A DNA stretch of 41,934 nt from a virus (taxonomy: Duplodnaviria; Heunggongvirae; Uroviricota; Caudoviricetes), in IMG/VR virus record IMGVR_UViG_2541047821_000007. One strand, 5' to 3'. Positions 34,523 through 41,934 of this stretch are shown piece after piece. Both the position numbers and the translations under genes were made by a program. The notes beneath the pieces are model-generated. The model did not search any database. It worked only from the letters and a program-made list of their open reading frames with translations, and was not told the origin of the DNA. Position 1 is the first letter of the stretch; the number at the start of each line of letters is the position of its first letter.

Positions 34523-34774
34523 TTATTCTTCTGCAAAAGCAGAAAAGCCAGCTTTTATTCCGATCTCTTTCAATGCCTGTAATGAAGTGACAAACTCACC
34601 TTCGCGCAAGATAAATCCGTCCGTCACTCGGGCATCCACAAAATTAATTAACGCAGCCCCATTCTTTCGCAAACACATAATGCGGTAATGACTAACAAGA
34701 TTTCCATTTTCAACGCACACAGCATAGAGGCCATCTTCACAAAAAATTTTACGCAGTTCTTCGATGTTCATCAT
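34523..34774 (-). CDS. hypothetical 83-aa protein
   Basis: Double ATG with AAGGA 5 nt upstream; no recognised motif. Confidence 0.45.
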   Translation of the reverse strand: MMNIEELRKIFCEDGLYAVCVENGNLVSHYRIMCLRKNGAALINFVDARVTDGFILREGEFVTSLQALKEIGIKAGFSAFAEE

Positions 34775-39044: not shown

Positions 39045-40010
39045 TTATCCTCTGAAACCAGGCGGAATTTCTGTATCCGGTTCAGAAATATGATTAACAC
39101 AACGCTGTACAGGTGAACGCCCCAGGCGGATGACCAGTTCGTCCCATTTTTCGCGGAGCTTTGACGGGCTCATGATGTTTTTTACCCAGAATGGATCCCG
39201 CTGTACCCGACCAAACATTTCACAAATTTGTCTGTGGCTTCTGCCATCCAGCATCCGCATTGTGCGCACATCATTGGCCCAGACAGTCCAGTTAGGCTCT
39301 TTTGGTCGCATGATCTCGCCATCATCACTGGCGGCCTGTTCGTAGAGACCCACGATCCGCCCCCATATCCACTGCGCACACGCCAGATCCTCCTGGCTAC
39401 CCCACTGGCGTTTTTTCGCACTAAACACAACTGCGCCAGGGTGCCGGATTAAAAAATCCTGTTCAGCCGTCTGCGGGTCCGGTTGCGAAGCTTCCGGACG
39501 AAAAGTGTTTTTATTCTCTGTAGTAATCTCTGTTGTATTCTCTGTAGGATCATCGGGCCATTTTGACCCGATGACATTGGGTCGTTTTGAACCAATGGAG
39601 CGTTTCATTTTGACCTCTTCCATCGTGTCATTTTGACCTGATGGAGCGGCGCATTTTGAACCGATGGATTCGCTCAATTTGCCATCATCTAAAAGCTCGC
39701 TTCCATAGTTAATCGTGTAGAAATTGGTCATATCGCGCTTTGATTTATTGAGCTTTTCACAACGCAAAAGCCCCAGCGTTTTCAGACTTGCAAACGCGCG
39801 CTTTAACGTTGACTCTGACCAGAATGGGAACTGTTCCAGCCATTGTTCCGTTGTGTTGTAAATCCAGCGAACACCATCACATTCCATGCCGGAATTGGTA
39901 TCTCTCAACCAGTAATGCAACTGCTGCAACACAATGGCTTCATTTAAGCCAATCTTCATCGCAAGCTGTGTGTTTATAACCAGTGGGCGTTCAGCAAAAA
40001 GAAGGCTCAT
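39045..40010 (-). CDS. replication initiator, phage O/DnaD-like, with internal origin iterons
   Basis: N-terminus MSLLFAERPLVINTQLAMKIGLNEAIVLQQLHYW typical of phage replication proteins; iterons inside the coding region; track start 40064 is TTG, ATG at 40010. Confidence 0.7.
   Translation of the reverse strand: MSLLFAERPLVINTQLAMKIGLNEAIVLQQLHYWLRDTNSGMECDGVRWIYNTTEQWLEQFPFWSESTLKRAFASLKTLGLLRCEKLNKSKRDMTNFYTINYGSELLDDGKLSESIGSKCAAPSGQNDTMEEVKMKRSIGSKRPNVIGSKWPDDPTENTTEITTENKNTFRPEASQPDPQTAEQDFLIRHPGAVVFSAKKRQWGSQEDLACAQWIWGRIVGLYEQAASDDGEIMRPKEPNWTVWANDVRTMRMLDGRSHRQICEMFGRVQRDPFWVKNIMSPSKLREKWDELVIRLGRSPVQRCVNHISEPDTEIPPGFRG
39559..39672. repeat. five iterons, consensus CATTTTGA(A/C)C(C/T)GATGG, 22-24 bp period (candidate ori)
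   Basis: Copies at 39560, 39584, 39608, 39630, 39653; encode repeated (S)IGSK in the protein; three TCTCTGT(A/T)G repeats at ~39514-39546. Confidence 0.7.
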
Positions 40011-40512
40011 AATTCCATCCAGCTTTTTGTTGGTATTGCTGTCGATACGCAAGTTTGAAAGCAATTGCTTTTTCTATAAGTTCGTCAGTTTCACGATCCA
40101 CTACGGCAGGATCAGCAAAAAGCAGTCCGGACTCCACCACATCGCCATATTCTTTGTTTAACCCGGCGATCATGTACGTGATGCTTTTTCCGTCACTAAT
40201 TTCACGATACAACCTGAAATCATTAATCCGGATAGCCTCCATAATTGCAGGCACTAGCGCCGTGAACTTTTCACGCTTATCCCTGGTGTCGATAGCCTTC
40301 CAGCGTTCGAATATCTTCACTCGATTAACGCCAAGCGCTCGCTGATCAACCGCGCCACCTTCATCTGTGACACGCTGAACATCGATGTTCGGGCGCTCTT
40401 TCAAAGCCCAGAATGCTTCAGTGATTAATATCGTCGCCTGCTCCTGTGTCATTCCTGGTCGACATATCCAGGCATCCAGAGCCTCACGAGCCTGTTCAGG
40501 AGTGATTTTCAT
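39991..40512 (-). CDS. YdaT-like early protein
   Basis: 173 aa; KIFERW...ALVPAI pattern resembles Rac YdaT; follows the Cro-like gene. Confidence 0.5.
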   Translation of the reverse strand: MKITPEQAREALDAWICRPGMTQEQATILITEAFWALKERPNIDVQRVTDEGGAVDQRALGVNRVKIFERWKAIDTRDKREKFTALVPAIMEAIRINDFRLYREISDGKSITYMIAGLNKEYGDVVESGLLFADPAVVDRETDELIEKAIAFKLAYRQQYQQKAGWNYEPSFC

Positions 40513-40723
40513 TGTTCAACCGCCCCGCCCGCTTCGTCTTACGATATTCGTCATAAACCTTGGGATCATACAGAAGCTCGCCGCCAGATGCCTCCTGTAG
40601 ACGCATCGCGCGACCTTCAGGAACCAGCTCTTGCCATTGAGAAACAGCAGATGGGTCAACGCCAGCAGCTTTCGCTACTTTGGCTTTCGTACCGTAAAAA
40701 TTAATTACGTCTGATTTAAACAT
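40496..40723 (-). CDS. dicC: DicC/YdaS-like Cro-type regulator
   Basis: ~75 aa from ATG 40723 (GGAGGTG SD); divergent from the repressor. Confidence 0.7.
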   Translation of the reverse strand: MFKSDVINFYGTKAKVAKAAGVDPSAVSQWQELVPEGRAMRLQEASGGELLYDPKVYDEYRKTKRAGRLNNENHS

Positions 40724-40735
40724 CGCACCTCCAGT

Positions 40736-40751
40736 ATTGAGTTTTCTCAAT
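40736..40751. promoter_or_regulatory. operator-like inverted repeat in the dicC-dicA intergenic region
   Basis: ATTGAG-TTTT-CTCAAT; the 11-mer AGTTTTCTCA(T) recurs at 41273-41285 and inverted at 41309-41319. Confidence 0.5.
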
Positions 40752-40800
40752 GCTAATCACTCAAGGAATCTCAAGTCAAGGGTTATTAAGATATCTAAAT

Positions 40801-41208
40801 ATGAACGAGAAAACTTTAGGTCAACGCATTAGAGAAAGACGTAAGCAGGTAGGTTTAAGTCAAAACGGTTTAAGCAAAGCTGCTGGCGTATCTGGCTCAT
40901 CAATTTCATTATGGGAAAGTGACCATACAGCCCCGCGCGGGCAAAATTTGCATCGCCTCGCCGAGGTATTGCAATGTTCACCAACCTGGATACTGTTTGG
41001 CGACGAGGACAAAACACCAGCTCCCCCTGTTTCACTCGATAGTGCCTTAGACTTATCGGAAGATGAGTTAGAGATGCTGCGTTTGTATCGCGCACTTCCT
41101 AAATCAGAGCAACAAGCACAACTCAGCGAACTCCGCGCCCGCGTTGAGAATTTTAATCGCCTGTTCACCGAGCTATTAGAGGCTCGCAAACGCAACAAGC
41201 ATCAATAA
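40801..41208 (+). CDS. dicA: DicA-like XRE-family repressor
   Basis: 135 aa from ATG 40801; HTH LSQNGLSKAAGVSGSSISLWE; VLQCSPTWILFGDEDK motif. Confidence 0.8.
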   Translation: MNEKTLGQRIRERRKQVGLSQNGLSKAAGVSGSSISLWESDHTAPRGQNLHRLAEVLQCSPTWILFGDEDKTPAPPVSLDSALDLSEDELEMLRLYRALPKSEQQAQLSELRARVENFNRLFTELLEARKRNKHQ

Positions 41209-41272
41209 TCATCCCTTCACAAAATTTTAAAGCCTTACATTTCAATGTATTGGCTTTATCTTGCGCCAATAC

Positions 41273-41324
41273 TTGAGTTTTCTCATCAAAAAGCCTTGAC
41301 GAAAAATAATGAGAAAACTAAATT
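41273..41324 (+). promoter_or_regulatory. candidate promoter with flanking operator half-sites for the ydfA-ydfB-ydfC operon
   Basis: TTGAGTTTTCTCA (41273-41285), -35 TTGACG (41296-41301), 17-nt spacer holding inverted copy ATGAGAAAACT (41309-41319), -10 TAAATT (41319-41324). Confidence 0.5.
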
Positions 41325-41400
41325 ACCTCCATCAACACACCGCACGGTGTTCTCAGCAAACAGTTCCGCTACCCCGGCGTTAAGGGGAAATGAGGTCAGC

Positions 41401-41556
41401 ATGGATACTATCGATCTTGGCAACAACGAATCTCTGGTGTACGGCGTGTTTCCAAACCAGGACGGCACGTTCACCGCAATGACGTATACCAAAAGCAAAA
41501 CGTTTAAAACCGAAAATGGTGCCCGTCGCTGGCTGGAAAGAAACTCAGGTGAGTGA
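41401..41556 (+). CDS. ydfA: YdfA-like small protein (51 aa)
   Basis: ATG 41401 with GAGGT SD. Confidence 0.6.
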   Translation: MDTIDLGNNESLVYGVFPNQDGTFTAMTYTKSKTFKTENGARRWLERNSGE

Positions 41557-41557
41557 T

Positions 41558-41686
41558 ATGGATTTCGACACAATCATGAAAAAGGCTTACGAAGAATACT
41601 TCGAAGGCCTTACCGAAGGCGAAGAAGCTCTCAGCTTCAGTGAGTTTAAACAGGCGCTTTCCAGCTCGGCAAAATCTAACGGCTGA
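41558..41686 (+). CDS. ydfB: YdfB-like small protein (42 aa)
   Basis: ATG 1 nt after the ydfA stop; not in track (<60 aa). Confidence 0.5.
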   Translation: MDFDTIMKKAYEEYFEGLTEGEEALSFSEFKQALSSSAKSNG

Positions 41687-41715: not shown

Positions 41716-41934
41716 ATGCAGAAACGAGAACCCGTCATCATCGCGCCAGACTATACCGATGATGAACTTTATGAGTGGATGCGCCAGAAAATTAATGCAG
41801 CGCAGGATCTGAAATGGGCCAATGAAGCCAGGGCTAAGCAGGCTGAAAATCTGTCCGCTCTGGAGCAGGATATCACCAGGCTGGAAAAAGCAGCGGCATT
41901 AAGCATTGCCAGAATGATTACATACCAGCGTTAA
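41716..41934 (+). CDS. ydfC: YdfC-like protein (72 aa)
   Basis: Complete ORF ending at the window edge with TAA; coiled-coil C-terminal half. Confidence 0.55.
   Translation: MQKREPVIIAPDYTDDELYEWMRQKINAAQDLKWANEARAKQAENLSALEQDITRLEKAAALSIARMITYQR

Follow-up and report, generated by a model that had tools for sequence, protein, structure and literature searches.

The window (i.e. the whole 41,934-bp stretch of DNA analyzed here) is an E. coli lambdoid prophage. Toward one end it carries a leftward gene of 75 aa and a rightward gene of 135 aa separated by a 77-bp spacer, and a further spacer of 192 bp leads from the latter to ydfA, ydfB, and ydfC. These genes, together with an antirepressor gene located farther to the left, are as follows:

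40496-40723, minus strand, dicC/cro-like gene, 75 aa (Pfam P22_Cro, E = 3e-16; Cro/CI family regulator in RefSeq)
40801-41208, plus strand, dicA-like repressor gene, 135 aa (Pfam HTH_3, E = 2e-15; P22 C2-type HTH N-terminal domain and DicA-type C-terminal half)
41401-41556, plus strand, ydfA (Pfam DUF1391)
41558-41686, plus strand, ydfB, among the first genes of the operon downstream of the PL-like promoter
41716-41934, plus strand, ydfC, within which the window ends
34523-34774, minus strand, rem (antirepressor), whose product is identical to K-12 Rem at 81 of 83 residues (98%)

The names dicA, dicC, and ydfA-ydfB-ydfC, which had been assigned in the initial annotation, are backed by comparison with E. 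coli K-12 and by Pfam. The dicC-like product is 71% identical to K-12 DicC, with divergence found only in residues 1-32, and the SD of its gene (GGAGG) is the complement of 40729-40733. The DicA-like protein and K-12 DicA share 56% identity; the N-terminal HTH half has diverged, most of the C-terminal half is conserved, and residues 56-76 are fully identical. Among solved structures, the one nearest to the DicA-like protein is the P22 C2 repressor N-terminal domain (E = 8e-16), after which the alignment stops, and a Pfam search of the protein returned HTH families only, i.e. no S24 peptidase/LexA-like domain. The ydfABC DNA is 96-100% identical to that of K-12, and in a chromosomal locus that is 100% identical, DicF (Rfam, 72.5 bits) comes next after the ydf genes, with dicB, ydfD, and an exonuclease gene behind it.

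This 1-kb region is 99% identical to the isolated functional temperate phages mEp460_ev081 and HannyBb, the former of which is known to carry dicAC, dicB, dicF, and rem (PMC10448788). It also has 100% identity to many E. coli chromosomes, and in a collection of 5426 complete genomes, at least 80% of its length is found in 796.

The dicC-dicA spacer (the OR region) and the dicA-ydfA spacer (the OL region) have a short word in common. The 10-mer AGTTTTCTCA is found exactly at 40740-40749 (plus), 41276-41285 (plus), and 41310-41319 (minus), i.e. three times within 580 bp; the remainder of the 41,934-bp window has no copy, while base composition predicts 0.08 exact copies per window and 0.001 per 600 bp. 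An 11-mer had been proposed initially; its first 10 letters hold at all three places, but the trailing T occurs only in the two OL copies, and an A follows the OR copy. The longest exact word common to the two spacers is TTGAGTTTTCTCA (13 nt), a length reached in none of 5000 shuffles and by a single pair among 2949 pairs of regions drawn at random from the window. When the 14-mer TTGAGTTTTCTCAA is searched at up to 2 mismatches, the window yields three matches (0, 1, and 2 mismatches), all at the same three places, against a shuffle expectation of 0.35, and 0 of 100 shuffles reach this number; at 3 mismatches there are 7 matches versus 4.4 expected, i.e. no enrichment. The functional unit is most likely the 14-bp dyad TTGAG-TTTT-CTCAA, and all three sites (OR1, OL2, and OL1) have TTTT at their center.

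The features identified in and next to the dicC-dicA spacer are the following:

40737-40750, unstranded, OR1, perfect dyad TTGAG-TTTT-CTCAA within the palindrome ATTGAGTTTTCTCAAT (40736-40751), positional equivalent of K-12 Oc and P22 OR1
40750-40779, minus strand, PR-like leftward promoter from a consensus scan, -35 TTGACT (40779-40774), 18 bp, -10 TAGCAT (40755-40750)
40759-40776, unstranded, OR2-equivalent, ACTCAAG-GAAT-CTCAAGT, which aligns with P22 OR2 and is centered 24 bp from the center of OR1
40764-40792, plus strand, putative PRM-like maintenance promoter of dicA, AGGAAT/17 bp/TAAGAT, hexamers and spacing as in P22
40784-40801, unstranded, OR3-equivalent near-palindrome TATTAAGATATCTAAATA with a P22-like TTAAG half-site, taken from an inverted-repeat listing and aligned with P22 OR3
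40804-40817, minus strand, degenerate copy TAAAGTTTTCTCGT, in dicA codons 2-6, with the 9-mer AGTTTTCTC exact at 40807-40815

The palindrome previously placed between dicC and dicA is indeed present inside the 77-bp intergenic region. The PR-like promoter faces dicC and, beyond it, ydaT/cII-like and replication genes. OR1 overlaps the last two bases of its -10, and the predicted transcription start near 40743 would also be overlapped by OR1. The OR2-equivalent has a window-type half-site on the right only and is not recovered by the 14-mer search at up to 3 mismatches; its function is uncertain. The OR3-equivalent was considered as a P22-type operator and rejected, as it matches the consensus only at 3 mismatches, a level at which the window holds 19 matches versus 16 expected, i.e. 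chance level. It is kept in alleles with different operators and is more plausibly the PRM -10 region, retained through common descent. OR thus holds one full-strength site next to degenerate OR2- and OR3-equivalents, so cooperative OR1-OR2 binding in the style of lambda or P22 may not apply.

Homology with P22 suggests that 40764-40792 is the maintenance promoter of dicA; in the P22 annotation, the corresponding promoter transcribes c2 in the lysogen, with the 5' nucleotide of the RM transcript placed 4 nt ahead of the ATG. The dicA mRNA would probably be near-leaderless, because no SD precedes its ATG at 40801.

The exact 10-mer is present three times, as first counted, but a fourth copy of the 9-mer AGTTTTCTC at 40807-40815 (minus), in dicA codons 2-5, had been overlooked. 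This 9-mer is statistically unexpected. We nevertheless reject the fourth copy as a true operator, given its 3-4 half-site mismatches and its loss from both Buttiauxella loci, which keep the other three sites, and on the sequences compared it is probably dispensable. An operator reading of the repeat leaves this intragenic copy without explanation.

In the dicA-ydfA spacer, we find the following:

41273-41286, plus strand, OL2, TTGAG-TTTT-CTCAT, one mismatch to OR1, ending 9 bp upstream of the -35
41296-41324, plus strand, PL-like rightward promoter of ydfABC-dicF-dicB, TTGACG/17 bp/TAAATT, from the consensus scan
41309-41322, minus strand, OL1, TTTAG-TTTT-CTCAT on that strand, two mismatches to OR1, in the promoter spacer and overlapping the -10

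The near-consensus ydfA promoter described initially (TTGACG at 41296-41301, 17 bp, TAAATT at 41319-41324) is also picked by the scan. The two OL copies had been said to bracket it; both are near it, but one is located 9 bp upstream of the -35 and the other in the spacer, where it overlaps the -10. A PL-like transcript is predicted to start near 41331, because the P22 annotation puts the 5' nucleotide 7 nt after the -10. OL1 aligns with P22 OL1 and OL2 with P22 OL2 (ATTTAAG-TTTT-CTTCAAA). Their centers are 36 bp apart, or about 3.4 helical turns, whereas a count on the sequences of K-12, P22, and Buttiauxella gives 35 bp; with this nonintegral number of turns, the dimers would sit on different helix faces, and cooperativity between them is not obvious. 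No third OL site is found upstream of OL2 at up to 3 mismatches, and the stretch equivalent to P22 OL3 has at most one half-site. A terminator was looked for between dicA and PL and was not found. The conserved PL leader (41326-41400) was considered as a structured RNA, and this was rejected: it has two small predicted hairpins with no compensatory changes, and it gives no Rfam match at E values up to 1.

The region is closely related to immC of phage P22. In an alignment with the annotated P22 genome, OR and OL run in parallel with it base by base, the Cro protein belongs to the P22_Cro family, and the N-terminal domain of the repressor is nearest to that of C2. The PR -35 (TTGACT) is identical in both and has the same geometry, the PRM hexamers and spacing (AGGAAT/17/TAAGAT) are also identical, and PL reads TTGACG/17/TAAATT in the window and TTGACC/17/TAAATT in P22. 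The dyads share the geometry xAG-N4-CTx with a 4-bp center. By contrast, the half-site is TTGAG in the window and TTAAG in P22 (G for A at P22 operator position 5), and OR2 of P22 reads ACTAAAG-GAAT-CTTTAGT, compared with ACTCAAG-GAAT-CTCAAGT for its equivalent in the window (40759-40776). The recognition helices differ at residues 32, 33, 34, and 37, which are G, S, S, and L in the window and N, V, A, and Q in P22; residue 46 is R rather than the N of P22, and the window protein also has A44 and H42. Three further differences concern the C-terminal half of the repressor (short and of the DicA type in the window, LexA/S24-like and cleavable in P22), the number of well-formed operators (one OR and two OL in the window, three and three in P22), and the downstream operon (ydfABC-dicF-dicB in the window, gene 24, the N analog, in P22).

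For the TTTT center, the P22 repressor is informative. Its contacts on an 18-bp site are to positions 2-7 and 12-17, with the central four uncontacted, and it binds sites with A-tract centers tightest, an N46A mutant binding the A-tract site only (PMC4267663).

The window also resembles the Qin prophage of K-12. The gene order is the same (dicC leftward and dicA rightward, then ydfA, ydfB, and ydfC, with dicF and dicB), the repressor likewise has 135 aa and no autocleavage domain, the Rem antirepressor is the same, and the dyads are similarly placed, i.e. one by dicC, one upstream of the -35 of the ydfA promoter, and one between its -35 and -10. In K-12, Oc (TTGTTAGTCATAACTAACAA) is a 20-bp inverted repeat that abuts dicC, and two operator-like copies are found 35 bp apart at dicBp, the promoter upstream of ydfA, which reads TTGACC/17/TAATCT compared with TTGACG/17/TAAATT for the PL-like promoter of the window. 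Qin is a cryptic remnant, whereas the element in the window is essentially identical to functional temperate phages. Protein and site also differ: the recognition helix is SGSSISLWES in the window and SHVSVSQWER in K-12, and the operator is TTGAG-TTTT-CTCAA in the window and TTGTTAGT-CATA-ACTAACAA in K-12. Even with 3 mismatches allowed, the window contains no dyad of the K-12 Oc type. Because it lacks a K-12-type operator and has a different recognition helix, the window is, as far as sequence can tell, a heteroimmune allele of the DicA/DicC system.

When the window and K-12 Qin are aligned, identity is 93-100% outside a central block and 30-80% inside it. This block is:

about 40620-41325 (~700 bp), unstranded, heteroimmune immunity cassette, comprising the HTH-coding part of dicC, OR, dicA, and OL

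Its left edge lies in the HTH-coding part of dicC and its right edge directly after the PL -10, and it contains both recognition domains and all operators, and nothing else.

Footprinting on 50 unique E. coli-type sequences reveals that the site cores are conserved between variable flanks. The 14 core positions of OR1 have no variants in any of the 50 sequences, while up to 8 sequences differ at the neighboring positions 40734-40736 and 40751-40753. The OL2 core is nearly invariant, with a hypervariable stretch just upstream (41265-41272) that reaches up to 9 minority sequences at single positions; likewise, the block 41309-41325 is nearly invariant and 41301-41308 is variable. Expressed as minority sequences per column, OL2 has 0.29, OL1 has 0.19, and the 22 bp between them have 3.23.

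The arrangement of sites is also conserved. Within 90 bp upstream of dicA, every locus with a window-type recognition helix (86/86) has a single site, and within 130 bp downstream it has exactly two, in the same orientations throughout. Among these loci are those of two Buttiauxella species, whose DicA proteins are 74-76% identical to that of the window and which retain all three sites despite diverged flanking DNA. A scan of a genome collection gave 8 loci and one of viral contigs gave 80 near-identical alleles, a sample that suits footprinting and is poor for allele diversity; other immunity alleles were for this reason taken from phage records.

Among these alleles, K-12/Citrobacter NCU1, PPompW/Klebsiella phi1.2, Cronobacter phiES15, and P22 each have their own dyad common to OR and OL, at the same positions, and the DicA recognition helix covaries with the operator. 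Half-site mismatches to an allele's own OL (best and second site) are 1 and 2 for the window, 0 and 2 for Buttiauxella, 0 and 1 for PPompW, 1 and 1 for P22, and 1 and 4 for K-12. In a cross-scan, mismatches between alleles are typically 3-4, and most alleles match their own OL best. The exceptions are C. braakii, which fits its own OL poorly, and the window dyad, which has 2-3 mismatches to the OL of P22 and C. braakii. The half-sites of the window, C. braakii, and P22 are partly similar.

Much of what is known about the function of such loci comes from K-12. There, DicA acts as a repressor of dicC and an activator of dicA; in vivo it binds Oc, and it was found to bind Oc only, not the sequence-predicted Om or Oa (PMC3441716). 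Deletion of dicA raises dicBp 22-fold, deletion of dicC leaves basal dicBp unaffected, and Rem derepresses dicBp 165-fold; DicC nonetheless influences dicBp switching (PMC10448788). The same study views the dicA/dicC locus as an analog of lambda OR/PR and OL/PL and defines the DicA subtype by a repressor without a cleavable C-terminal domain. The O157:H7 (PPompW-type) allele behaves genetically like K-12 (PMC6915034).

Taken with the positions of the sites, these comparisons suggest that the three copies are operators of the prophage immunity repressor and that the region represents the DicA form of a P22-type immC switch, a reading to which we assign a probability of roughly 0.85. The sites stand at the K-12 and P22 operator positions and travel with the recognition helix, so that one repressor controlling both promoters is the best reading; the initial annotation, which had put the divergent region and the ydfA operon under a single repressor, is borne out to this extent by the K-12 evidence, the site positions, and the co-occurrence of helix and site.

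The sites, the promoters, the homologies, the cassette edges, and the joint inheritance of sites and recognition helix are seen directly; for the mechanism, we infer binding, stoichiometry, PRM activation, the role of the T-tract, and the transcription starts. The DicA-like protein would act as a dimer on the 14-bp dyad, with each HTH reading one TTGAG half-site. The central T-tract is probably not contacted and would favor binding through its narrow minor groove, which by comparison with P22 points to indirect readout of a preformed narrow groove at the TTTT center. Repressor on OR1 would turn off the PR-like promoter and keep dicC/cro and the ydaT/cII-like and replication genes silent, and by analogy with K-12 and P22, repressor at OR would also stimulate the weak PRM-like promoter of dicA. 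Repressor on OL2 and OL1 would turn off the PL-like promoter and silence ydfABC-dicF-dicB and the recombination genes behind them. DicC, whose HTH has codiverged with that of DicA, presumably shuts down dicA from the same sites. Because the repressor has no autocleavage domain, induction is expected to proceed via the antirepressor Rem (34523-34774).

A variant of this scheme appears unlikely. It would be a switch with a reduced operator set, i.e. one strong OR and two T-tract-dependent OL sites, whose center is perhaps read by Arg46 where P22 has Asn46. Such a switch would have no OR1-OR2-OR3 cooperativity in the style of lambda or P22, and its autoregulation, or its communication between OR and OL over 536 bp, would run via the conserved C-terminal half of DicA; the fourth copy (40804-40817) could be an allele-specific negative autoregulatory site.

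P22 and lambda Cro proteins bind the same operators as their repressors, and the sites could conceivably be used by the Cro-like DicC alone, which would couple both promoters in place of the DicA-like repressor. The DicC HTH half has diverged from K-12 alongside the operators, in the same cassette, and DicC affects dicBp switching (PMC10448788). We consider exclusive use by DicC very unlikely, however, since in K-12 it is the loss of dicA that derepresses dicBp (22-fold), with no basal effect of losing dicC (PMC10448788), since K-12 DicA occupies Oc in vivo (PMC3441716), and since the DicA recognition helix covaries with the operator. Use of the sites by both the DicA-like protein and DicC is expected, and use by DicC exclusively is not.

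It is comparably improbable that the repeat is a relic of a P22-like ancestor, or an A/T-rich element linked to promoters, that is conserved by linkage and has no present operator function. Collinearity with P22 immC means that the similarity between OR and OL could be ancestral, P22 OL2 is also centered on TTTT, and many of the E. coli copies are prophages that are possibly cryptic. Against this, mEp460_ev081 and HannyBb, which carry the same cassette, are functional phages (PMC10448788), invariant cores lie between hypervariable flanks and are retained in Buttiauxella despite divergence of the flanks, and the half-site has changed from that of P22 in step with the recognition helix.

We give still less credence to the motif being a site for a host factor, e.g. 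a nucleoid-associated protein acting on prophage promoters. The sites are A/T-rich, and in K-12, Fis and Hfq are reported to repress dicBF and H-NS/Cnu to act antagonistically (PMC10448788, PMC3441716). A host-factor site should not change with the repressor allele, yet within one host species the dyad at these positions differs from one immunity allele to the next, and operators of the K-12 type are absent from the window. Lastly, three copies arising by chance in A/T-rich intergenic DNA, to which the lack of 14-mer enrichment at 3 mismatches (7 versus 4.4) might be taken to point, are effectively refuted by statistics and conservation, i.e. by three exact 10-mers where 0.08 are expected, three matches at up to 2 mismatches where 0.35 are expected (0/100 shuffles), a shared 13-nt word unmatched in 5000 shuffles, and a pattern kept in 86/86 loci.

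With the three copies read as operators of the DicA-like repressor, the region has the expected arrangement and changes no concept: its architecture, its regulatory logic, and the presence of dicAC and rem in mEp460_ev081 are already published. The exact operator word has no match in the searchable literature. Among DicA-type immunity alleles of E. coli, this is one of the commonest, and the analysis provides a precise, testable operator (TTGAG-TTTT-CTCAA) for it and maps its promoters. Under the control of this allele are DicF and DicB, both with effects on cell division of the host and on phage resistance. Knowledge of the operator may help to predict superinfection immunity groups and to design reporters that follow prophage induction in E. 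coli of gut or urinary origin. It also bears on how specificity differs between P22 C2 and the DicA-type repressor, as a single half-site position (A to G) changes along with four helix residues.

Mosaic junctions with the cryptic E. coli K-12 prophage Qin are sharp on both sides, the left one falling within the cro-like gene dicC at approximately codon 34 (40620) and the right one immediately 3' of the -10 hexamer of the rightward ydfA (PL-like) promoter (41325). These boundaries illustrate the exchange of immunity specificity as a unit of ~700 bp. Features in and around this unit are as follows.

34523-34774, minus strand: rem antirepressor gene
39045-40064, minus strand: replication-initiator-like gene, downstream of dicC
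39991-40512, minus strand: YdaT_toxin-family gene in the cII position, downstream of dicC
within 40764-40801: PRM-like promoter of dicA, AGGAAT/17/TAAGAT
40804-40817, minus strand: fourth operator-core copy, AGTTTTCTC (exact 9-mer at 40807-40815), within dicA codons 2-5
41326-41400: 5' leader of the PL-like transcript, CATCAACACACCGCACGGTGT...GTTCCGCTACCCCGGCGTTAAGGGG

Compared with Qin, Rem is nearly unchanged (81/83 residues identical to K-12 Rem), whereas the helix-turn-helix halves of the repressor DicA differ strongly between the two prophages. Because Rem is preserved despite this divergence, the comparison suggests that the conserved C-terminal half of DicA is the part recognized by Rem.

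The PRM-like promoter is identical in hexamers and spacing to the annotated PRM of phage P22. No Shine-Dalgarno sequence precedes the dicA ATG in 40764-40801, and the repressor mRNA, like its counterparts in P22 and lambda, is therefore probably near-leaderless. The fourth operator-core copy is present in all E. coli-type loci compared and absent from both Buttiauxella loci, where the predicted operators OR1, OL1, and OL2 remain; this copy may serve in autoregulation as a weak site, or may simply have arisen by chance.

Both listed genes beyond dicC belong to the PR-like operon, and the one at 39991-40512 is labeled "toxin YdaT family protein" in RefSeq but cII-like in phage records.

The PL-like leader is conserved across all DicA-type alleles compared, including those of Klebsiella and Cronobacter phages. 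Its predicted structure consists of two small hairpins, neither of which shows compensatory covariation, and the leader has no Rfam match; it is possibly an antitermination or processing signal.

A few natural variants, found in viral contigs L086, L087, L089, and L091, carry single substitutions within the OL cores (e.g. TTGAGCTTTCTCAT and TTGAGTTTTATCAT, plus a copy reading ATGATAAAACT), which may be mutations that weaken the operators of prophages in decay or escape.
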